64,000 nt of DNA from an uncultured cyanobacterium (GCA_963793425.1 CAWCAG010000001.1:1-64000), one strand, 5' to 3'; numbered from the stretch's first letter, positions 1,700-29,880 are shown. The notes: generated by a model from the sequence alone, not told the origin. A program made the numbers and translations.

Positions 1700-2404
1700 T
1701 TATTCTTCTGGCAATTCCCCAAAACGCTCCCTATACTGAGCTAATAAAGCTTCAGCTTGTTCAGCCCTTTGTTGTTGTGCGATCGCAACTTCTTCTGGTG
1801 TAGGAATTAACTCCCTTTTATCTGTAAAAAAGCGTAGTTTTTCTTCGTGAACACCTAAATACAATCCTAATTGCCCACTCCAAAGCAAGCCTTCCTCATT
1901 AGGCTGCATTTTCTCATAGGTTCCTCGAATTAAGGCAAACCCTTCAAATTCCAAACTCTCTGGATCAAGCCAAAAATATTCTGGTGTACGAAAAGTATCT
2001 TGATAAATCTGCTTTTTCAATCCCTTATCTGTTTTTGTCGTTGAACTAGACAACAACTCCACAATTACATTAGGATACTTGCCCTCTTCCTCCCAAACTA
2101 CCCAACTCTTACGAGGTTTACGTTCTGTATCCAATACCACAAAAAAATCTGGCCCTCGGAAATCTTCTGACTTTCTTTGTTTCGGGCTATAGTAAATGGT
2201 CAAATTACCAGTAGCGAAATAGTCATTACGTTCTCGCCACCACCAATCTAAACATTTAATCAGCAGCAACATCTGCTGCAAGTGGAGATATGTTTCCAAG
2301 GGTGGTTCGTTACTTTCTAACTCACTAAAAGGGAAGAGTATCTCTTCTGAGACAACATCTCCATTGATGGCATTAAGAGATTTTACATCCTGAGTAAAGG
2401 ACAT
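1700..2404 (-). CDS. Uma2 family (DUF820) PD-(D/E)XK putative endonuclease
   Basis: GPDFFVV...RKSWVVWEE...PNVIVELLSSST...YQDTFRTPEYFW motifs; short coiled-coil tail. Confidence 0.9.
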   Translation of the reverse strand: MSFTQDVKSLNAINGDVVSEEILFPFSELESNEPPLETYLHLQQMLLLIKCLDWWWRERNDYFATGNLTIYYSPKQRKSEDFRGPDFFVVLDTERKPRKSWVVWEEEGKYPNVIVELLSSSTTKTDKGLKKQIYQDTFRTPEYFWLDPESLEFEGFALIRGTYEKMQPNEEGLLWSGQLGLYLGVHEEKLRFFTDKRELIPTPEEVAIAQQQRAEQAEALLAQYRERFGELPEE

Positions 2405-2492
2405 GGCAAAAAGTTGGCAAGATGGGGGTTGGGAATTTAATACTTCCAGTTTAACTAATTGTTGCTTTTATGTTGTAGAGGAGAAGATTAAA

Positions 2493-2542
2493 GAATCTGT
2501 CCTCTAATAACGGAGTTTTAAACCTTTTTTTGTTTCGATAAA
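2493..2542 (-). mobile_element. Solitary IS200/IS605 left-end remnant
   Basis: GAATC..CGGAGTTTTAAACCTTTTTTT..TTTCGATAAA closely matches the left end of the tnpB element at 9384-9434, but no transposase or tnpB follows. Confidence 0.6.
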
Positions 2543-2554
2543 ACAGAGGTTATT

Positions 2555-3685
2555 TTACCTACTAGCAGCAATAAAATCAAGCATCTTTTCTTTCACTGAA
2601 GCAGTTTCTACATTCTCTTGAGGATTTCTTCTCACAATCCCAGCATTCTTTAAAAATGCCTTACCTAAAGTAGCCAAAACTTCTATATTATAAGGACTCG
2701 CATCATCTATCGCTTCAATAACCTCAATACGTCCTCTTTTAATCTTCTTTCTTTCCTCTTCATCCAAACTACTTAATAATTCTTGCTTTAATTCACTATC
2801 CATTAAGCTAGCTAAATATTGAGTTGATAAGTTGGGTTGCAAACGTAAATAACGGTCTGGTTTATCTTCACCAAAAAGGATTTCTCTAGCTATATAATCA
2901 TTAATATCTAAAGGCCCATCCATGAGAACATCAATAATATGTCCTGCCCAATTTAATACTCCCCAAGTTCTCGCTTCTTCATAGGAAATGGGTTTAGTCA
3001 CATCACCTGTACCAATAGAAAGTACACTAATATTTCTCAAATCGTTGCCCAATCTTACTGCCTCCGCCAAAGCACAAGCAACAGGATTATTTGCACTAAC
3101 TCCACCATCAATACCCGAAAATTCCTCGTCTCTAGGTTTAGGAATTCTGTAAGCAGGAAAAAAAGTTGGTGCAGATGCAGAACAAACACAAAGTTCCCAG
3201 ACAGGAATATCGGCATACCACATTTTATGTCGCCAACTTTTGAAAACTTCAGGGCGACGGGTAATCGTATCATAGGAAGTAATTAATAATTTCCCAGGAG
3301 ATTCAACACTGGGAGTAAGTTCTCCTAGGGTTGTTTTTGCTCCAAACTGTTCTTTTAAAACCTCAATCAAACCATCATGGGAAAATTTCGGTGCAGAAAG
3401 ACCACGTTCTAAAACTATTTTTAATCTCCGGGGATTAAAATATCCCCAAGTTCCGCTATAGGGAAAAATTCTGTGACCGTTTTCTCTGTATAAATTAAGT
3501 AAGTCACGAGCAGATTTTTTACCAGCAATTCCCGTAGCAATAATCGAACCGGTAGAAGTTCCAGCAATTAAGTCAAAATATTCATGCAAAGGTTGATCAA
3601 CTAATTTTTCAAACCCTTCTAAGATTTGTGCAGCTAGAGTACCGCGAATTCCACCACCATCCAGACTCAAAATACGATAGGGCAT
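2555..3685 (-). CDS. Patatin-like phospholipase
   Basis: DGGGIRG oxyanion motif, GTSTG nucleophile elbow, SASAPTFF, DGG catalytic Asp. Confidence 0.92.
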   Translation of the reverse strand: MPYRILSLDGGGIRGTLAAQILEGFEKLVDQPLHEYFDLIAGTSTGSIIATGIAGKKSARDLLNLYRENGHRIFPYSGTWGYFNPRRLKIVLERGLSAPKFSHDGLIEVLKEQFGAKTTLGELTPSVESPGKLLITSYDTITRRPEVFKSWRHKMWYADIPVWELCVCSASAPTFFPAYRIPKPRDEEFSGIDGGVSANNPVACALAEAVRLGNDLRNISVLSIGTGDVTKPISYEEARTWGVLNWAGHIIDVLMDGPLDINDYIAREILFGEDKPDRYLRLQPNLSTQYLASLMDSELKQELLSSLDEEERKKIKRGRIEVIEAIDDASPYNIEVLATLGKAFLKNAGIVRRNPQENVETASVKEKMLDFIAASR

Positions 3686-3764
3686 ATTGTTTTAGGCAAT
3701 AGTAATACAGTCGTGCTAAATATAAGTATGCCAAGAGTATGCCAATTATCAAAGCGGAACACAT

Positions 3765-3798
3765 TAAAAAGAAAAAGGGTAGCCAATGACTACCCTTT
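3765..3798 (-). terminator. Intrinsic terminator hairpin
   Basis: AAAGGGTAG-CCAATGA-CTACCCTTT stem followed on the minus strand by T-rich tail. Confidence 0.6.
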
Positions 3799-3947
3799 AG
3801 TTAGGTATGTATGGTCGTAGTGTGCATAACTACTGCTTTAATGACTAGATTATTTAAGGGGAAGTTTCCTAAATCAAGTTCTCTAAAGTATTATTAAGCT
3901 TAAATAAACTACTAAGAACGAAGTTAACAATGCGATTCCAGGGACAT

Positions 3948-3978
3948 GAAAATAGGCCAGGTATTGTAACCTGACCTA
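3948..3978 (-). terminator. Intrinsic terminator hairpin
   Basis: Minus strand TAGGTCAGG-TTACAATA-CCTGGCCTA-TTTT. Confidence 0.6.
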
Positions 3979-4093
3979 ATTAGATCATGTCTGAGGATTT
4001 TTAACTAAGTGTGAGGACAAATGTAGTTACTTAATGTCCGCCCTTAATATCTTCTTACTCAAGGGTAATGTTAAATCTAAGAAAAGATTAAGG

Positions 4094-4579
4094 TTAAGTA
4101 TTTTTATTGCTTTGAGATTTAATTTCCTGCAACAAACCCGAACAAGCATCTAAAAGCAAATCAATTACATTATCAAACCCTTCGGGGCCACCATAATAAG
4201 GATCAGGAACTTCTTTCTCTTGATGTTCAGAAGCATAATCACACATCAAACGTACTTTAGATTGATATTTGCTTTCTTGATCTAAAGCCAGAATATTATT
4301 ATAGTTATCTCTATCCATCGCTAAAATCAAGTCAAACTCCGCAAAATCTGACCTGATAAATTGCCTAGCTTCACCTTTAAGTTCAATGCCTCGTTTCTTC
4401 GCAGCAGAATTCATACGCCGATCCGGAGGAGAACCAATATGATAGCTAGAAGTCCCTGCCGAATCACAAACAATTTCATCGGTCAAACCAGCTTCAGCAA
4501 TTAAGTGGTTCATAATATTTTCTGCTGAAGGAGAACGGCAAATATTTCCTAAGCAAACAAAAAGTAGTTTTTCAGCCAT
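4094..4579 (-). CDS. Low molecular weight protein-tyrosine phosphatase
   Basis: FVCLGNICRS P-loop and DPYY motif. Confidence 0.95.
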   Translation of the reverse strand: MAEKLLFVCLGNICRSPSAENIMNHLIAEAGLTDEIVCDSAGTSSYHIGSPPDRRMNSAAKKRGIELKGEARQFIRSDFAEFDLILAMDRDNYNNILALDQESKYQSKVRLMCDYASEHQEKEVPDPYYGGPEGFDNVIDLLLDACSGLLQEIKSQSNKNT

Positions 4580-4705
4580 TGTTTCGGAGATTTAGGGAAT
4601 AAAGAAATGGACGAGGGATCGCTCTTTCACCCTAATGACAAATGTCAATGGCATGGAATGCCCCTATCGCCATTTCTTTTAGTCTTTTTTAATCTAGACC
4701 CCCAA

Positions 4706-5059
4706 CTACATACCTGGGAGATTTAAACCACTGGTGAGTTCTTCCATACGCCCTCGCATTGTCTCTGTGGACTTACTGTAGGCATCTTTCATTGCTTCTG
4801 TCACTAATGCCGAAAGCGCTTCTTCTCCTTTAGCTATAGCATCAGGGGAAATAGTTACACTCTTTGGTTCTTGATTACCACTCATTACTACCCTAACAAG
4901 CCCATCCTCACTTTGCCCTTCAATTTCCATTGCTTCTAGTTCAACTTGGAGTTGTTGCGCTCCTTGTTGAACTTGCTGAGCTTTTTTGAACGCTTCGGTA
5001 AGTTCTTTCATTTTACCCAAACCAAAACCGAATCCTTGTCCTTTGTTCCCTTTGTTCAT
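4706..5059 (-). CDS. ybaB: YbaB/EbfC family nucleoid-associated protein
   Basis: KKAQQVQ...[17 protein letters not shown] pattern; located next to murB. Confidence 0.88.
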
Positions 5060-8168: not shown

Positions 8169-9017
8169 TTTAAAGTCTCAGGGTGTCCCCCCGCGACTTT
8201 GATATTTACGGCAGCGTTAACATCTCTATCGTGAACTGCACCGCAGTTCAAGCAAGTCCATTCCCGAATAGCAGAGTTCCTGCTTGCCGCCTCTAAAACC
8301 ACACTCAAGAGCATCTCTGTGATGTGGGTTCCCATCTATCTATTACCCTAAATTCTCTGCCATACATTACTGATTTAGCTTCTAACATAGTTCTGAAACT
8401 ACGCCAACCTAAATCACTTATGGCACGGGACAATTTACGGTTTCGGAGCATTCCCGATACGTTTAAATCTTCTAGAATTATCGTTTGGTTTTCACGAATT
8501 ATCCTAGTTGACAGCTTATGTAGAAAATCATGCTCTGGTGTCTTTTATCTTGGCATAAAGCTTGGCTACTCTTTTTCTGGCTACTTCTCGCCTCTTACTA
8601 CCTTTAGTCTTTCTGGCAAGGTTGACGTTGTAGTTTCCTAAGCTTTTTTAGTTTCTTCTTTAAGGGTTTTGGGGCTTTAATTTTCTCTCCGTTACTTAAT
8701 GTGGCAAAGTCGGTTATTCCTAAGTCGATTCCTACACTTGAGTGTGACTTAGGTAAGTTTTGTGGTGGGATTTCAACTACGAAGCTTATGAAGTATCTAT
8801 CAGCACTATCTTTGATTACTCTTAGAGATGTGGGAGTTGAGGGAAGTTCTCTTGAGAGTATAGGGTTAATGTTACCAATTTTAGCTAGGTAAACTTGTTG
8901 CCCTTCCATTGAGAAGGCTGATTTGGTGAATGCTGCACTTTGTTGATTACTCCGCTTTTTGAACTTTGGTGGTAAGACTCTTTTACCTTTTCTTTTGCCC
9001 TTACATGAGTTAAAGAA

Positions 9018-9066
9018 GCGGATGCGACCCCGCGTCGGCGAAAGACGCAAGGGAACGCGCACCAAG
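9018..9066 (+). repeat. Structured dispersed mini-repeat, copy B
   Basis: GCGGATGCG-ACCCCGCGTCGGCGAAAGACGCAAGGGAACG-CGCACCAAG; adds 17 codons in frame to tnpB. Confidence 0.85.
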
Positions 9067-9915
9067 CAGTTCTTGTAGGCTGCGGCTAGGTTTCTTAAGG
9101 TTTGTTGTAAGGGGACTGCTGATACATCCCTTAGCCACTTTCTTTCTTCACTCTTTTTGGCTATGGTTAACAGGCTAGATAGTTTGTTGTAGTTTAATGC
9201 TTTGCCTAAGTTTTTGCATAGTGCCAGAGCATCGTTCCAAACGACGCGGATACAGCCAAATAGTTGAGCTAGTTTTGTTTTCTGCTCCTTTGTTGGGTAA
9301 AATCTGTATCTGTATCTAGCTTTCATGTTGGTTGCAACAGTTGCTATTGGCAAATTATGTTTATTGTACCTGAAAAAATCAACGAATCCGCCCTAAAACG
9401 GCGGGGTTTTAAACCTTTTTTTCGTTTTGATAAATTCCCAGGCAATGTTATAACTGTTGACTTCATAAGACTTACAACCTCCATTGATCAAGGGTGATAG
9501 GCAAGGTAAGTTGTCTATGATGAGTGCAACAATTGAGGGACTATTTAAGGTAGATAGTTCACCTGAATTTTATTGTTAAAACTTAGATATTTTCAGTATT
9601 CAAGCTATTGCTTTGATGCTTGACAAACTTCATGATTAAAATAATTTAATTCAGTGTAGGTGATGAAATAATCACTCTCTTGCTTTTATCGCATCTATCT
9701 TAGGTGGTAGGTGTTGACAAGCCAAAAACTCAGTAAACGCCCCCTCATATTCAAACAGATCCTTTCTTCTTTAATTGGCTTGTAGGCTGTGCCACTAGCA
9801 ACTAACCAAAAAATAATCAACCTTGCTAGTTTCGATTTGTTCTTGCTATGCGATATGATCGGGTTTATTAAGATTTTTTTAATGTATTCATCTTGAAGAT
9901 AGAGGGCAAGAAGTA

Positions 9916-13279: not shown

Positions 13280-14461
13280 ATGGAATATCGGCGGTTTGGT
13301 CGTACAGAATTATCAATGCCTGTCTTTTCTTGTGGTGGGATGAGATATCAACATAAATGGCAAGATCGTCCCCTTGCAGATATTCCCCAAGACAGCCAAG
13401 ACAACTTGGAAACAACCATCAAAAGGGGTTTAGAGGTTGGTGTTAACCACATCGAAACAGCAAGGGGTTATGGCACTTCAGAAATGCAGTTGGGACAAGT
13501 TTTACCTCAATTGCCCAGGGAGAAGTTAATTGTCCAGACGAAGGTTAGTCCTAAACCTAACCCCAAGGAGTTTCGCCGTCAGTTTGATAAATCCCTAAAT
13601 TATTTGCAACTAGATTATGTGGATTTGTTAGGACTCCATGGCATTAATAACGAAGAGGTTTTGCATAATAGTATTCGTCCCGGTGGCTGTTTTGCTGAAG
13701 CGAAGAAGTTACAAGCTGAGGGGAAAGTACGCTTTATTGGTTTTTCTACCCACGGCCCGACAGAGATTATTGTTAAAACCATTGAAACAGGTTTGTTTGA
13801 TTATGTAAACTTGCATTGGTACTACATCAATCAATTTAATTGGCCTGCCATTGAAGCAGCAACTAAAAAAGATATGGGAGTGTTTATTATCAGTCCTTCT
13901 GATAAAGGTGGGCAGCTTTACAACCCGCCATCCAAATTAGTTGAACTTTGCCAGCCCTTAAGCCCGATGGTTTTTAATGACCTTTTTTGTCTTAGCCATC
14001 CTCAAGTTCATACTCTTAGTTTAGGGGCTGCTAAACCAACAGATTTTGATGAACATCTTAAAGTTTTACCTCTTTTAAACCAAGCTGAGGAAATTTTGTC
14101 GCCGATTTTAGAACGTTTAGAGAAAGAAGCGATGGCAGTTTTAGGAGAAGAGTGGGTACGAAGTTGGTATGTTGATTTGCCTGATTTTACTCAAACTCCG
14201 GGACAAGTTAATATTCCAGTAATTTTGTGGTTAAGGAATCTTGCCCTTGCTTATGACATGGTAGATTATGGCAAAATGCGTTACAACTTGTTGGGTAATG
14301 GTGGTCATTGGTTTCCTGGTCAAAAGGCAGAGAATTTGTCAGGATTGGATTTCAGTTCTTGTTTAAAAAACAGTCCCCATAGATATAAAATTCCTGCTTT
14401 GTTAGCAGAAGCAGAAGAGATTTTAGGGGGAGGGGAAATCAAGCGTTTATCACAGAGTTGA
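13280..14461 (+). CDS. Aldo/keto reductase family protein
   Basis: MEYRRFGRT, IETARGYGTSE, LDYVDLLGLHG, GKVRFIGFSTH motifs. Confidence 0.92.
   Translation: MEYRRFGRTELSMPVFSCGGMRYQHKWQDRPLADIPQDSQDNLETTIKRGLEVGVNHIETARGYGTSEMQLGQVLPQLPREKLIVQTKVSPKPNPKEFRRQFDKSLNYLQLDYVDLLGLHGINNEEVLHNSIRPGGCFAEAKKLQAEGKVRFIGFSTHGPTEIIVKTIETGLFDYVNLHWYYINQFNWPAIEAATKKDMGVFIISPSDKGGQLYNPPSKLVELCQPLSPMVFNDLFCLSHPQVHTLSLGAAKPTDFDEHLKVLPLLNQAEEILSPILERLEKEAMAVLGEEWVRSWYVDLPDFTQTPGQVNIPVILWLRNLALAYDMVDYGKMRYNLLGNGGHWFPGQKAENLSGLDFSSCLKNSPHRYKIPALLAEAEEILGGGEIKRLSQS
14035..14461 (+). repeat. Direct repeat (left copy) of the aldo/keto reductase 3' end
   Basis: High identity to ~17522-17948, including long identical tracts. 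Confidence 0.9.
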
Positions 14462-14499
14462 TTTGTGTTTAGTTTCGCGACCTTGACCTAACCTACAGT

Positions 14500-14907
14500 T
14501 CATACTACTTTTAGAGTGAAATTGTACTTCTTTGTACAAAAAGGTGGTATAGTCATCCATTTCTCATAGTCCATTAACCCAATAACTATCTGTTTGGAGA
14601 ACTCTTTACTTTGAAACCAAGAAGGCGAAGGAGCTATTGAGCAGAGAGAAAACTCAAGTTGACCATTTCCAACAACAGGGGAACCATAGGCTGCAACTGT
14701 ATCAAAGTGAGCGCCTATACGATGTAAATTCTTGTCTTTAGCATCTGGGTATAAATTAGCAAAGAACTTACATGGAGTACGAGCAAAGTATTCAACTACT
14801 AGTTTCACTTCATATTGCTTAGCTTTAGAGACCGCGAAATAATATGAACCTTTTTCTAACTCTACAGGTTTAATAATTGAGATAGAATAGCCACTAACTT
14901 GTGTCAT
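14500..14907 (-). CDS. Hypothetical protein, predicted beta-rich; third gene of the NLR cassette
   Basis: 135-aa ORF with AGAGG RBS, co-oriented immediately downstream of the NLR gene; no family recognised. Confidence 0.65.
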   Translation of the reverse strand: MTQVSGYSISIIKPVELEKGSYYFAVSKAKQYEVKLVVEYFARTPCKFFANLYPDAKDKNLHRIGAHFDTVAAYGSPVVGNGQLEFSLCSIAPSPSWFQSKEFSKQIVIGLMDYEKWMTIPPFCTKKYNFTLKVV

Positions 14908-14926
14908 AAAAAACCTCTAACTTGTG

Positions 14927-16912
14927 TCATTGTTTAAAAAACATCATTAAATTCAAACTTGCAATACATCTTCCAAAAGGGAAAGTTATGAATATTTCAT
15001 CGTCTTTGTCTAGCACCATATCATTTTCATAATTTACAATCTTGGCTACTACGTAATCTCCTTTTTTTACTTTTTTCGATGGATCATACTTTAGCTTGGG
15101 AAGCCTTGAAAAGCCTTTGATAACAACTTTTCTACCAAACTCATTAATGAATTCACTACACTCATTTGGGTTTTTCTCACATATCTTTTCAAAATAATTA
15201 TCAACACTCAAAGTATTTTTAGTGAATTTATTCCATTTCTTACTTTTTGAATTTGATATTGATAATTCTAGATTTTTGAGCGAACACAATTCATATTTTT
15301 TGTCATCAATATTCTTTGATATTTGTAATGCTTCTTGATTACAAGCTATATCTTCTTGATACTTTCCCAGAGCCAAGTAAGTTCTAGCAAGGCGGTGCAA
15401 TAAATTGATTTTTATAAAATTAAAAGCATTTTTATCAAAATCACTTATACTATTAAGTAGAGATGATGCTTCCTGATAAGCATTTATAGCTTCTTCAAAA
15501 TTATTTAAAGAACCATGAATTGCATCACCTAAATGAATCAAATTTATAGTAATTATTAACTGCTCTTTAGAAGAAAAGTAATTTTCTAGCCATTCATTAA
15601 TCAACTGTTTGTATAAAGGTATTAGTAGACCATATCCTCCCCATTGCTTATTTAAAAACTCTACGCAATTTTCAATAATAAAACTTGCTCTAGTATAATC
15701 ATTTGCTTTGCAAAAGTGATAAAAAGATTCTATTTCTGCACCACAATCATCTGGTAAAAATTTCTTGCTATTTGTATTTTCTGAAAAGAAAATACCTGCT
15801 TTTAGGTGTGCTGCTTTAAAACTCTCAAGTTGCTCTAATTCTTTATAAACAAGCTCTTGTATTAGTGGATGCAAAGTCCAACGCTGATCTTCTGGCCTTG
15901 CTACTAAAAATGATTTCTCAGACAGAAGTTGAATATCTGCTATTTCTGCTTCTGGTGCTATCGCTTTAACCTCCCTCATGCTAAAGGCATTACGGTAAAC
16001 ACTAATACCTGTTAGTAACGTTCTTAAATTAGAATTTAACTGATTAAAGAGATTTTTGAATACCTTCTCAACTTTTGCTTCTAGCTGTACTTGATCATTC
16101 TGAAAGAGATTTTCAAAGAATCGAAGGTATTCTGAAGTTAGCTCAAAATATTCTAGTTTTTGCCCGTGTTGTTTAAGCCATACTATTACTAACTTAAGTA
16201 ATAGGGGATGTCCTTCCGTCGCAATTGCTAAATCTCTAACATGATTTGGATTATTACTTACAATACCAAGCTCGTTGAGAACTTTGTCAAACTGTTTTCG
16301 CTCCAAACCCTTAAGATGAATCCAGTGATCTGCTTCACAGAGCTTTCGCTTGGTAGTGAGTAGAAGTTTACTGCATTCTCCTCTTTCTAACCAATCTGTT
16401 AGAAAAGCTCTATATGAAGACCAATTTTCCGATGAAGCAATCATTTCTAATTGATCAATTATTAATAAGTATGGCTTTTCTCTCAAGTGTTTGAGTAATT
16501 CTAATGCGAGGTCTTGATCACTAGGTTGATAATTAATTTCTTCTACTTTGCACCCTAGTTCTCGTAGTAACCATAGGGCAAATAGGTTGAAGGGAATATC
16601 TTTAGGTATACTAATCCAAAGTTTTTTGCAAAATCCTGATGCTAAATTATGATATGCCCATGCTGCTAAACTCGATTTTCCAAACCCACCTAATCCAAAA
16701 ATGCCGATAAGCCTACTTTCAGATTTTATTCTTTTACATAAATCTTCTTGAATATTGTCACGATTAATCCAATTTTCAAGGGATGGTGGAACTGAATCAA
16801 TTCCTATAATAAGAATCTTTTTTAAAGACTCATTTTCTTTAAAAGTAAGTTCCCCTTCAGGGTTATTGATTACATATAGATCGCCAATATGACTCTCGTT
16901 TCTTTGGCTCAT
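14927..16912 (-). CDS. NLR-like STAND protein: short N-terminal motif, NB-ARC, TPR, small C-terminal beta domain
   Basis: Walker A GLGGFGKS, Walker B LLIIDQLE, LLLTT sensor, GHPLLL (GxP), LHPLI (MHD-like), then TPR-like helices. Confidence 0.9.
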   Translation of the reverse strand: MSQRNESHIGDLYVINNPEGELTFKENESLKKILIIGIDSVPPSLENWINRDNIQEDLCKRIKSESRLIGIFGLGGFGKSSLAAWAYHNLASGFCKKLWISIPKDIPFNLFALWLLRELGCKVEEINYQPSDQDLALELLKHLREKPYLLIIDQLEMIASSENWSSYRAFLTDWLERGECSKLLLTTKRKLCEADHWIHLKGLERKQFDKVLNELGIVSNNPNHVRDLAIATEGHPLLLKLVIVWLKQHGQKLEYFELTSEYLRFFENLFQNDQVQLEAKVEKVFKNLFNQLNSNLRTLLTGISVYRNAFSMREVKAIAPEAEIADIQLLSEKSFLVARPEDQRWTLHPLIQELVYKELEQLESFKAAHLKAGIFFSENTNSKKFLPDDCGAEIESFYHFCKANDYTRASFIIENCVEFLNKQWGGYGLLIPLYKQLINEWLENYFSSKEQLIITINLIHLGDAIHGSLNNFEEAINAYQEASSLLNSISDFDKNAFNFIKINLLHRLARTYLALGKYQEDIACNQEALQISKNIDDKKYELCSLKNLELSISNSKSKKWNKFTKNTLSVDNYFEKICEKNPNECSEFINEFGRKVVIKGFSRLPKLKYDPSKKVKKGDYVVAKIVNYENDMVLDKDDEIFITFPFGRCIASLNLMMFFKQ

Positions 16913-16951
16913 GTTTTCACCACAACTCTTTGAGCAAACAAGTTACTTTAG

Positions 16952-17341
16952 CTAACCACCTAGTCTGAGATTACCTGTTGGATTGTTGATCACATACATA
17001 TCTCGCCCATTGCTGTTATTGATTTGTTGAAGTTTGTTTTTTTGCTGAGTCTGATGGAGATTCCCAATTTGTTGAGCTAATTGCTTGACTTGTGTTGCAA
17101 ATTTGGGATCAAACTTCATTTCATTTGCTAAGCACTTTGCAAGACTATCTATACTTACCTCATTTTTCCGAGTTGCTACAGCTCTAAGGACATTCTCATT
17201 TTGTTGTTTTCCCTTGAATTTCTCAGCAATTACATTCCATAGTTCCTCAACTATTTTTTCACCAGCTTTTCCCACTCCCCCTTCCATAAACTTGCTAGCG
17301 GCAAGGGCGGCTACAGTCATTGCAGTAATAGGCTCTGTCAT
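16952..17341 (-). CDS. Small helical Bell/HeLo-like effector with C-terminal N/Q/G-rich candidate amyloid motif
   Basis: N-terminal hydrophobic/Gly-rich helix (ITAMTVAALAASKFMEGGVGKAG), LW..I..KF and D..FA..V..L patterns; tail matches the NLR N-terminus. Confidence 0.7.
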   Translation of the reverse strand: MTEPITAMTVAALAASKFMEGGVGKAGEKIVEELWNVIAEKFKGKQQNENVLRAVATRKNEVSIDSLAKCLANEMKFDPKFATQVKQLAQQIGNLHQTQQKNKLQQINNSNGRDMYVINNPTGNLRLGG

Positions 17342-17521
17342 AGGTTAACCTTTGTTGAGTTGAAAAGTATTCACTCATTCGCAATTATACTGACACCCTA
17401 TAATTTCTTATAATACACATTCAATTAAAAACTTGTAGTTCATTTTCTAGCTAAATGTACTTGTAAAGCTCAAGTAGCTATAGCAGCACTCAGTAAAACC
17501 AAAAGAATCAGTTCCAAAACT

Positions 17522-17948
17522 GCTAACGGATTTTAATGAATATTCAAAAGTGTTACCTCTTTTAGAACAAGCAGAGGAGATTCTCTCGCCAATTTTAGAA
17601 CGTTTGCAAAAAGAGGCGATCGCAGTTTTAGGAGAAGAGTGGGTACGAAGTTGGTATGTTGATTTGCCTGATTTTACTCAAGCTCCGGGACAAGTTAATA
17701 TTCCAGTAATTTTGTGGTTAAGAAATTTGGCTCTTGCCTATGATATGGTAGATTATGGCAAAATGCGTTACAACTTGTTGGGTAACGGTGGTCATTGGTT
17801 TCCTGGTCAGAAAGCAGAGCAATTATCAGGATTAGATTTAAGTTCCTGTTTAAAAAATAGTCCCCACGCAGCTAAAATCCCCGCTTTATTAGCAGAAGTA
17901 GAAGAGATTTTAGGAGGAGGGGAAATTAAACGTTTATCCCAAAGCTAG
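17522..17948 (+). pseudogene. Displaced 3' fragment of the aldo/keto reductase gene
   Basis: 132-aa fragment nearly identical to the C-terminal third of 13280..14461; lacks the 5' two-thirds. Confidence 0.9.
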
Positions 17949-26932: not shown

Positions 26933-27574
26933 TTAAATGCTATCAGGATCAACCCCTAAAGCTCTTAATTGAGAGGCTAATCGCTCTGCTCTTTGGTATT
27001 CCTGTTCAGCCCGTTGCTCTAACTCTAAGGAAGTAAGAAACTTGCATCCATCTGGGCGATAAATCTCTAAAGATTCTTCAGTTAGGACAAAGGTAATTCC
27101 TAGTTTAGGGCTAGTCCAATTGTTCATCTCTTCAATCACACTTAGCCTCTCTTCAAGATAATGTAGCCCATGTAAATCGTTGCGTTGTGGATCATAAATA
27201 TAATATTCTTTTACCCCATAGCGCTCATAAAAGTGTAATTTCTTGGTCATTTCTTTGAGGGTATTTCCTGGGGAAATAATTTCAAACACAACTTGAGGAG
27301 CAATATTATTTTCTTCCCACTGTTTATAAGAGCCGCGTTCGCCTCTTGGTCTATTAAAGGCTACCATTACATCAGGAGCAACACGTATTTTGGGCTGACC
27401 TTTCACTGGATACCAAAGTAAATCCCCTGCTACAAAAACTTGAGGATTATCTGCAAATAGCAGGTCTAAGTTCTCTTTAATTAGGACAATCCAACGAAAT
27501 TGTTGAGTATTATCTGCCATTGGTTGGCCATCACTATCAGGATAAACAAGATCACGGTCAAGAGAGAGAGTCAT
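26933..27574 (-). CDS. Uma2 family endonuclease
   Basis: YPDSDGQPMADNT, APDVMVAF, PQVVFEIISP; close paralog of 29176..29880. Confidence 0.9.
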   Translation of the reverse strand: MTLSLDRDLVYPDSDGQPMADNTQQFRWIVLIKENLDLLFADNPQVFVAGDLLWYPVKGQPKIRVAPDVMVAFNRPRGERGSYKQWEENNIAPQVVFEIISPGNTLKEMTKKLHFYERYGVKEYYIYDPQRNDLHGLHYLEERLSVIEEMNNWTSPKLGITFVLTEESLEIYRPDGCKFLTSLELEQRAEQEYQRAERLASQLRALGVDPDSI

Positions 27575-29175: not shown

Positions 29176-29880
29176 TTACTTACTATCAGGGTCAACTCCT
29201 AAAGCCTTCAATTGAGCAGCCAATCGTTCAGCCCTTTGGCGCTCTTGTTCGGCTCTTTGGCGCTCTTGTTCAGCCCTTTGGTATTCTTGCTCGGCTCTTT
29301 GATGTTCTTGTTCAGCTTTTTGCTCTAATTCCAAAGAAGTAAGAAACTTACCTCCATCGGGGCGATATATTTCTAAACTTTCTTCAGTTAACAGAAAACG
29401 AATCCCTAATTTAGGACTAGCCCAATTATTGGTTTCTTCAATGACATTGAGACTGCCTTCTGTGCGAAGTAAGCCATGAAAGTCATTACGTTGTGGGTCA
29501 TAAATATAATATTCTTCTACTCCATAGCGCTCATAAAAGTGTAGTTTTTTGGTCATTTCTTTAAGAGTGTTTCCAGGAGAGAGAATTTCAAAGACAACTT
29601 GAGGAGCAATATTGTTTTCTTCCCACTGTTTATAAGAACCTCGGTCGCCCTTGGGTCGATCAAAAGCTACCATAGCATCAGGGGCAGCCCTAATTTTCGG
29701 CTGACCTTCTACAGGATACCAAAGCAAATCCCCCGCGACAAAGACTTGAGGATTATCGGCAAATACCAACTCTAGGTTTTCTTTGATAAGAACTATCCAA
29801 CGAAATTGTAGAGTATTATCTGCCATTGGTTGGCCATCACTATCAGGATAAATAAGATCACGGTCAAGAGAGAGAGTCAT
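29176..29880 (-). CDS. Uma2 family endonuclease with expanded AEQExQR heptad tail
   Basis: Uma2 motifs; four 21-bp tandem units near the 3' end. Confidence 0.9.
   Translation of the reverse strand: MTLSLDRDLIYPDSDGQPMADNTLQFRWIVLIKENLELVFADNPQVFVAGDLLWYPVEGQPKIRAAPDAMVAFDRPKGDRGSYKQWEENNIAPQVVFEILSPGNTLKEMTKKLHFYERYGVEEYYIYDPQRNDFHGLLRTEGSLNVIEETNNWASPKLGIRFLLTEESLEIYRPDGGKFLTSLELEQKAEQEHQRAEQEYQRAEQERQRAEQERQRAERLAAQLKALGVDPDSK

Follow-up and report, generated by a model that had tools for sequence, protein, structure and literature searches.

A predicted BASS8-type amyloid-signaling gene pair with a divergent matched motif and a conserved third gene in an uncultured cyanobacterium

Background

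What does it signify when the last residues of a small protein recur at the very beginning of a large NTPase encoded by the adjacent gene? This question is raised by three collinear open reading frames (ORFs) on the minus strand of a 64,000-nucleotide stretch of DNA from an uncultured cyanobacterium (GCA_963793425.1 CAWCAG010000001.1:1-64000; henceforth the window), which ORF calling placed in the order 129 amino acids (aa), 661 aa and 135 aa. An earlier reading of the window from its sequence alone (the sequence-only reading) had proposed that the first two genes form a Bell/BASS-type system, in which an activated NLR-like receptor would template amyloid folding of a small membrane-targeting effector, and that the motif shared by the two might be new. 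The system itself is supported by the homology of the small protein to Bell domains, by the paired motifs and by their co-occurrence in related loci; the novelty of the motif is not. We consider it likely that the first two genes of this three-gene cassette constitute a BASS8-type amyloid-signaling pair, which would act through templated release of the effector and cell death.

A literature search on BASS8 returned, among the matches listed, discussion in PMC8086366 only, and among newer work on Bell/NLR amyloid signaling the preprint on the Bab/Agp pair (10.1101/2024.11.07.622273) alone was directly relevant.

Matched motifs at the ends of adjacent genes

The first gene (16952..17341, as all three on the minus strand) encodes the 129-aa protein, whose last 24 residues, QINNSNGRDMYVINNPTGNLRLGG (residues 106-129; 16955..17026; henceforth the tail), form a gapless alignment with residues 3-26 of the 661-aa protein, QRNESHIGDLYVINNPEGELTFKE (16835..16906; the head). 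Twelve of the 24 aligned residues are identical, namely Q, N, S, D, YVINNP, G and L, and the eight-residue core YVINNPxG is the same in both. The gapless match reported by the sequence-only reading is confirmed by a genome-wide comparison: when a 30-aa tail segment was compared, by the best ungapped BLOSUM62 score, with the N-terminal 40 aa of each of 4,897 ORFs (length at least 100 aa), the adjacent NLR-like gene ranked first with a score of 60, the runner-up reaching 37. None of 5,000 shuffles of the head attained 60 (maximum 51), and with this and the genome-wide rank chance can be rejected as the source of the match. In all six reading frames of the 5.28-Mb genome (10.57 million translated residues) the pattern Y[VIL][VIL]NNP is found four times, two of them being the tail and the head described here.

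Within the stretch DxYVINNPxGxL, nine residues are identical, and for six of them (V, N, N, P, G and L) the two genes use different synonymous codons. The likeness is therefore maintained at the protein level, as had been suggested from the sequence alone, and a recent DNA duplication is rejected as its origin. In the last 26 residues of the small protein the combined share of asparagine, glutamine and glycine is 46%, as against 26% in the protein as a whole. The two genes are separated by a spacer of 39 nucleotides (16913..16951); among published Bell/NLR pairs 91.3% are collinear, with spacers that are mostly very short (10.1101/2020.01.06.895854).

The small protein as a Bell-domain effector

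Family searches with the small protein, as with the third protein of the cassette, returned nothing from Pfam, NCBIfam, PADLOC or PHROGs, the Pfam copy used holding no Bell model; the Pfam HetE-N model matches just 2 of 118 members of the Bell family (best E-value 0.0029). A word-based homologue search recovered the small protein itself and nothing else, and an exhaustive profile search was needed to find its relatives. The key relative is a 129-aa protein from another genome of the phylum (G355), to which it is 46% identical over its full length (E = 1e-29). This homologue ends in ...NANYGRDQFVINQPSGDLKLGGS, a tail that is the published Bell-side entry C20_s014. Searching 1.84 billion proteins with a profile of 16 Bell proteins gave 1,568 representative clusters at E <= 0.001; the members are mostly 120-155 aa long and are encoded beside STAND NTPases, with varied matched tails. 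Some are fused N-terminally to NB-ARC domains (P0107, P0117 and P0081), the first two of these also possessing TPRs. Whole-genome searches detected relatives in 9 of 41 related genomes, the genome studied here included, with NLR-like genes beside them.

The Bell domain has been described as a helical domain of about 100 aa, modeled as a five-helix bundle and found in proteins of 120-140 aa or as N-terminal fusions to NLRs, its signature being a hydrophobic first helix in which residue 2 or 3 is acidic (10.1101/2020.01.06.895854); a later study describes a 'MEPIS'-motif region and four helices cupping helix 1 (10.1101/2024.11.07.622273). The AlphaFold2 model of the small protein displays five helices (residues 7-16, 25-42, 46-58, 61-77 and 79-110; mean predicted local distance difference test score, pLDDT, of 69), with the tail disordered from residue 103 and the motif region at a pLDDT below 50. 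The protein begins with MTEPITAMTVAALAASKF (MTEPIT), with glutamate at position 3, comparable to the consensus N-terminus of the family, xxEPxTAxxIAxLAF, and its most hydrophobic 15-residue stretch comprises residues 5-19 (Kyte-Doolittle value 1.47). From hydropathy and the family consensus, residues 1-20, MTEPITAMTVAALAASKFME (17282..17341), are presumed to form the membrane-attacking helix. Homology, the all-alpha five-helix model, the hydrophobic N-terminus with its acidic residue, and adjacency to an NLR-like gene together show, as far as sequence and model allow, that the small protein belongs to the Bell-domain family. By analogy with related systems it may kill the cell by permeabilizing membranes.

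In P0063 (617 aa) the N-terminal Bell-family domain is fused to CHAT, TRADD-like N and TIR domains, and in P0021 (393 aa) to a GUN4-like domain. The genome studied here also encodes two further Bell paralogues outside the window (G000:C9:340686-341186 and G000:C1:358753-359160), both with other tails, one of which resembles published BASS9-type strings by eye.

The NLR-like receptor

The second gene (14927..16912) encodes the 661-aa protein, in which the Pfam NB-ARC model matches residues 52-193 (16334..16759) with E = 5e-10 and 39.5 bits against a cutoff of 23.5. Within this domain lie a Walker A motif, GLGGFGKS (residues 73-80; 16673-16696), and a Walker B-like motif, LLIIDQLE, around D153; the residues G76, F77, G78, K79, S80, D153 and E156 are invariant across 13 aligned NLRs. 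A TPR-like region, the candidate sensor, extends over residues ~393-576 (15185..15736). It is recognized by a PADLOC TPR model (residues 393-576, E = 3.2e-6), and at residues 465-548 by Pfam TPR_12, TPR_1, TPR_2 and TPR_8, TPR_12 scoring 29.6 against a cutoff of 30.1 and five other TPR models having E < 1e-3. By these domain matches the protein is an NLR-like STAND NTPase with NB-ARC and TPR regions and a predicted intact P-loop. In agreement with the sequence-only reading it has no other N-terminal effector domain, the motif starting already at residue 3.

We detected 48 homologues of this protein, the closest being 49-52% identical, and 12 of the 48 carry BASS8 at their N-termini (tail profile, E <= 0.001). 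Orthologous NLRs begin with MIQ[KE]NNSYG[RH]DQ..., which is canonical BASS8.

The motif is a variant of BASS8

When a profile made from both motif copies of the window was run against 401 genomes of the phylum, it gave one convincing match outside the genome studied here, in the G355 genome (E = 4.3e-5). Among the next matches, L011, L012, L015 and L037 were inspected and discarded, none of these four lying in a Bell- or NLR-like gene. The partner of the G355 Bell protein is a 1,757-aa NB-ARC/TPR protein that begins with ...MENKITSQNTNYGRDQFIIYEPMG, which is the published entry C20_s005; both motif strings of this pair (L010/L041) are thus printed in the supplement of PMC8086366, whose README states 'C20 == BASS8'. 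BASS8 is one of ten BASS families, of which BASS 7, 8, 9 and 10 are specific to cyanobacteria (10.1101/2020.01.06.895854). By their records, 15 of the 16 related loci analyzed here are from cyanobacteria and one is from a metagenome-assembled genome of a Rhizobium sp.

The BASS8 consensus reads N-x-G-R-D-Q-x-[IV]-I-N-[NQ]-P-x-G-x-[IL]-[KR]-[IL]-G-G. With 15 other loci as input and the window excluded, a BASS8 tail profile recovered the tail of the window with 28 bits and E = 5.1e-6 as the single significant match among 74,936 six-frame segments; the same profile matched 7 of the 150 best Bell-family representatives at E <= 0.001. The tail also has 14 of its last 20 aligned residues in common with C20_s014 and resembles other published C20 entries by eye. 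Since the G355 pair is published as C20, the Bell proteins are 46% identical and the leave-out profile finds the tail, the motif is, on sequence grounds, a variant of BASS8 and not a new family, contrary to what had been suggested for D[ML]YVINNPxGxL in the sequence-only reading.

After GRD, all 15 other tails and all 23 other heads compared continue with Q; in the pair of the window the tail has M at this position and the head L, each followed by Y.

Co-occurrence and co-variation of the motifs

Taking one genome per species, the scan for related loci yielded 16, in 14 of which the Bell protein has a BASS8 tail, L063 and L064 carrying other motifs. One of the 14 (L058) ends 57 nucleotides past the gene and was left out of the test for heads, leaving 13 testable loci. 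In 10 of these the next ORF has a BASS8 head by profile (independent E-value <= 1e-3) and in two more (L057 and L065) by eye, L062 being the remainder. The co-occurrence of the motif at the C-terminus of effectors and at the N-terminus of NLRs, which had been named as a check on the proposed system, is therefore found in 12 of 13 loci. The partners are NB-ARC/TPR, NACHT or nSTAND NTPases.

The tails and heads also vary together. We compared 15 pairs, excluding L058 and L062 for want of a usable head, L063 and L064 for their other motifs, L069 as a near-duplicate of L067 and L068 as a locus with the third gene only. Cognate tails and heads score 65.9 on average against 44.6 for non-cognate combinations, and none of 20,000 permutations gave as high a value. 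Relatedness among the pairs makes them non-independent and the statistics too favorable, but the direction of the effect is plain. The tail in the window ranks its own head first among the 15 BASS8 heads. In the nearest orthologous pair (L067) the Q is kept in both tail and head. We read the pair in the window, from these sequence comparisons, as diverged but apparently co-adapted, a decaying pair being the main rival to this reading.

BASS8 heads are also present on small proteins that are not NTPases (L054:589-1005, L054:1075-1638 and L057:761-1324): one of 139 aa in which a PASTA domain scores 23.9 bits (cutoff 23.2), one of at least 188 aa without a family, its ORF running into the contig end, and one of 188 aa with TPRs only. 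In L054 two such genes stand in a row behind a single Bell gene. Other related Bell/NLR pairs have matched motifs of different kinds, for instance ...WNVIGKAEKNEFIDNKAPIIKDNTGTINISYGQ versus ...WNVTGNAERNVYIDNKAPIIPGNQGTVNITYGQ; such pairs (L064:3001-3462 and 3389-4777; L008:1498-1878 and 2041-3279; L007:1501-1959 and 1964-3193) show that tails are exchanged in modular fashion within a single Bell family.

Proposed mechanism and alternative explanations

Taken together, these features suggest how the pair may operate. The TPR region of the receptor would meet a trigger, upon which the NB-ARC domains would oligomerize and bring the N-terminal motifs together to form a cross-beta nucleus. This nucleus would template the C-terminal counterpart of the motif in the 129-aa Bell protein, and refolding of the tail would free the hydrophobic N-terminal helix to attack the membrane, resulting in the death of the cell, probably as an altruistic defense against phages or other parasites. 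The gene layout, the matched motif, the Bell and BASS8 memberships, the conservation of the motif in both partners of related pairs and purifying selection can be read from the sequences, whereas amyloid formation, templating, membrane attack and a role in defense are proposed by analogy, the anti-phage role being the step of which we are least confident. In the systems that serve as the analogy, Bell-side motifs pass into a prion state through the action of NLR-side BASS motifs, and cross-beta fibrils form from the motifs tested, those of BASS1 and BASS3 only (10.1101/2020.01.06.895854). The cross-seeding pairs are 43-56% identical (10.1101/2020.01.06.895854), a range within which the 50% identity of the present pair falls. 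Abortive-infection defense has been shown for the E. coli Bab/Agp pair with BASS11 only, and the same study regards the function of Bell/NLR pairs as still to be elucidated (10.1101/2024.11.07.622273).

Several observations weigh against this interpretation. A Foldseek search of the Bell model against PDB gave no match at E <= 0.001. In VIA-align the best Z was 5.5, with many ties; second was the ZAR1 coiled-coil (6j5t_G, residues 28-137; Z 5.3, root-mean-square deviation 2.9 over 69 residues), tied with unrelated helical proteins and within the range of noise. Bell-family sequence profiles run against PDB chains found designed or coiled-coil helical proteins only, with no Bab, HeLo or MLKL chain. 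The Bell assignment is supported by homology (46% identity to the G355 protein); for a fold related to HeLo or MLKL the Foldseek and VIA-align searches gave no specific support. Further, PADLOC (PADLOC-DB 2.0) gave no system-level match but only the generic TPR model mentioned above, which may reflect nothing more than the lack of Bell/BASS systems in its library of 2023; the cassette is flanked by housekeeping genes and not by a defense island; and the fibril and prion tests in the accessible literature cover BASS1, BASS3 and BASS11, with none found there for BASS8. Compared with a profile of 23 other BASS8 heads, the head reaches only 8.6 bits (E = 5.5), since it has IGDL in place of GRDQ. 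Finally, both Bell paralogues elsewhere in the genome adjoin broken NLR genes: one a NACHT fragment with a stop shortly after the P-loop, the other an NB-ARC/TPR gene that is broken up into several ORFs and lacks a matching head. As both of the other Bell genes have such neighbors, modules of this type do decay in this genome.

These last two points speak for an alternative in which the module is a decaying or silenced relic with ORFs still open and a head that has drifted too far from BASS8 to nucleate, and a 23-nucleotide tandem duplication at the junction of the second and third genes (described below) could be read in the same way. We nevertheless regard a relic as unlikely. All three ORFs are intact, and in comparison with their L067 orthologues the ratios of nonsynonymous to synonymous substitution rates (dN/dS) are ~0.15 for the Bell gene, ~0.23 for the NLR gene and ~0.16 for the third gene, with dS near saturation; all three genes are shown by this to be under purifying selection. 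The core is identical in both partners despite synonymous differences, in each of them a hydrophobic residue has taken the place of the otherwise invariant Q, and the tail prefers its own head over the 14 other BASS8 heads. Because of the intact ORFs, the shared core, the parallel change of Q and the cognate preference, the divergence of this pair looks like co-adaptation rather than drift.

An ordinary binding interaction would likewise explain matched motifs: they could be a docking or co-assembly tag acting by beta-strand addition in a hetero-oligomer, or a signal for localization or degradation, in either case with no prion-like templating. The missing fibril experiment for BASS8 in the accessible literature leaves room for such a tag, and the conserved proline would be unusual inside a beta-strand. 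This proline, however, lies in an N-[NQ]-P-x-G stretch, which would fit a turn between two short strands, and the position, length, N/Q/G richness and gene context of the motif are those of BASS families. As every BASS family tested in the published work at our disposal (BASS1, BASS3 and BASS11) formed fibrils and cross-seeded, and the position-by-position co-variation of the partners is what in-register stacking predicts, we hold a non-amyloid tag to be improbable. A separate amyloid-signaling family distinct from BASS1-11 is hardly credible: although 'VINNP' has no occurrence in the accessible part of the published training sets, where the exact motif strings of the window are also absent, and the head is not recognized by the BASS8 head profile, the tail is found by the leave-out BASS8 profile and shares most of its final residues with C20_s014, and both genes have closest orthologues with canonical BASS8.

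A conserved third gene

A third gene (14500..14907) starts 19 nucleotides downstream of the receptor gene and encodes a conserved 135-aa protein without a known family. Its homologues comprise six proteins at 64-73% identity (five of 135 aa and one of 133 aa) and one at 42%. In the metagenome loci L067 and L069 a Bell protein with a BASS8 tail, a 624-aa NLR with a BASS8 head and this gene follow each other in the same order, with identities to the window of 58% for Bell, 49% for the NLR and 68% for the third protein. The gene is present in 2 of the 401 genomes of the phylum sample, counting the genome studied here, and in none of the other BASS8 loci examined. Wherever found it follows this NLR subfamily (window 14500-14907; L067:3322-3726; L069:5001-5405; L071:1072-1827). 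More distant relatives with a membrane anchor or transmembrane segment occur in L071 and P0158.

Profile searches with the third protein detected nothing in Pfam, NCBIfam, PADLOC, PHROGs or PDB, and its best Atlas score of 0.81 is a lead only. The AlphaFold2 model is all-beta (mean pLDDT 65), and its fold matches are generic jelly-rolls and beta-sandwiches that all fall below the noise bar, including the best Foldseek match, a cyanopodophage tail-needle chain (E = 6.6e-3), and the best VIA match, the Pgp3 C-terminal domain (Z 6.6). Two phage tail-needle knobs (VIA Z 5.4-5.8) are among the weak structural neighbors, likewise below the noise bar.

At the junction of the receptor gene and the third gene, the start of the latter (ATGACACAAGTTAG...) is tandemly duplicated over 23 nucleotides (window 14886-14930). 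The ATG of the first copy overlaps the TGA stop of the receptor gene (ATGA) and opens a mini-ORF of eight codons; the second copy is the start of the 135-aa gene.

The third protein is kept at 64-73% identity while the receptor is conserved at only ~49%. This raises the possibility, which we put forward tentatively and ourselves view with some doubt, that this BASS8 subclade forms a three-part system, in which the recoded motif core (M/L for the invariant Q, then Y) would be a private amyloid 'key' insulating the pair from other BASS8 pairs and the third protein would be a working partner, e.g. an adaptor that binds the trigger or a brake on the receptor. The main text of the accessible BASS8 literature makes no mention of a third gene, which figures, supplementary tables or the journal version could note.

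Genomic context of the cassette

The three genes lie between two direct repeats of 414 nucleotides on the plus strand, which are 88.4% identical without gaps. The left copy (14038..14451) belongs to an intact aldo/keto reductase gene (13280-14461), of which it forms the 3' end, and the right copy (17525..17938) is an orphan 3' fragment of the same gene (ORF 17550-17948). The intervening cassette (14462-17524; 3.06 kb) has a G+C content of 26-35% as against ~40-48% in the flanks and no DNA match in a genome of the same genus (G001), where its two flanks are on different contigs. To that genome the two reductase copies are 87% and 84% identical, values that do not tell which copy came in. The cassette looks like an acquired island rather than part of a defense island, apparently integrated by recombination at the 3' end of the reductase gene.

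The neighborhood genes in the window include those for MurB, a Mur ligase, GAPDH, ArgZ, FBPase, transaldolase and G6PD/OpcA, of which ArgZ and OpcA are typical of cyanobacteria. Amid these housekeeping genes is a truncated IS605-type OrfB (TnpB-like) ORF of 249 aa (window 8604-9353), and two genes for putative endonucleases of the Uma2 family are found at 26933-27574 and 29176-29880. In a scan for promoter-like and terminator-like sites neither kind stood out from chance: 15 of the former were detected (expected 11.5) and 2 of the latter (expected 1.5).

Relationship to known systems

The closest comparison is with the published BASS8 Bell/NLR pairs (10.1101/2020.01.06.895854; PMC8086366, class C20). 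In these, as in the window, a cyanobacterium encodes a helical Bell protein of ~130 aa that ends in the motif (N-x-G-R-D-x-x-[IV]-I-N-x-P-x-G-x-[IL]-[KR]-[IL]-G-G), next to a collinear gene for a STAND NTPase with a copy at its N-terminus, divergent in the case of the window. The pair in the window departs from them in that its receptor copy has IGDL where the family has GRDQ, in having a hydrophobic residue and Y where the family has Q-x, and in the conserved third gene behind the receptor. The receptor itself is short, at 661 aa with few TPRs, whereas that of the G355 pair has 1,757 aa.

Experimental support for the proposed mechanism comes from the Bab/Agp pair of E. coli ECOR25, in which an adjacent sensor likewise has at its N-terminus the same motif as its effector, and for which a phage-triggered, sensor-dependent amyloid conversion, membrane damage or alteration and abortive infection are reported (10.1101/2024.11.07.622273). 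Its motif is BASS11, and its Babybell domain measures ~80 aa as opposed to the ~100-aa domain in the window; a profile of the window family run against PDB sequences found no Bab chain. In the HET-S/NWD2 system of Podospora anserina, comprising a HeLo effector and a NACHT-WD NLR, the logic and gene arrangement are the same: the N-terminal motif of the NLR templates the C-terminal motif of the effector and frees an N-terminal membrane-targeting helix. That system is eukaryotic, has HeLo rather than Bell, and carries its HRAM motif as two pseudo-repeats in the effector in contrast to the one copy in the present tail; there is no detectable sequence relationship between the two pairs. RHIM of RIPK1/RIPK3 and the RHIM-like BASS3 and fungal PP motifs are also short amyloid motifs that signal regulated cell death, but they differ from the motif described here, which has no RHIM-like features and is of the BASS8 class. 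The coiled-coil of the ZAR1 resistosome and the four-helix bundle of MLKL resemble the proposed Bell effector as small helical bundles that hide a releasable membrane-inserting N-terminal helix; in ZAR1 this domain is fused to the NLR, in the window it is a separate gene, and no sequence similarity was found.

Bell/NLR amyloid-signaling pairs are the bacterial counterpart of fungal HET-S/NWD2 and animal RHIM signaling; tests of their function in cyanobacteria were not found in the accessible literature. The locus is a further member of this published kind, particular in its divergent, apparently co-adapted motif pair and its conserved third gene. It leaves the picture of such systems unchanged. 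What it adds to the known systems is a compact BASS8 example with a 661-aa receptor, clear co-variation of the motifs and a conserved third gene, features that make it convenient for testing cross-seeding within BASS8 and specificity at a single position.

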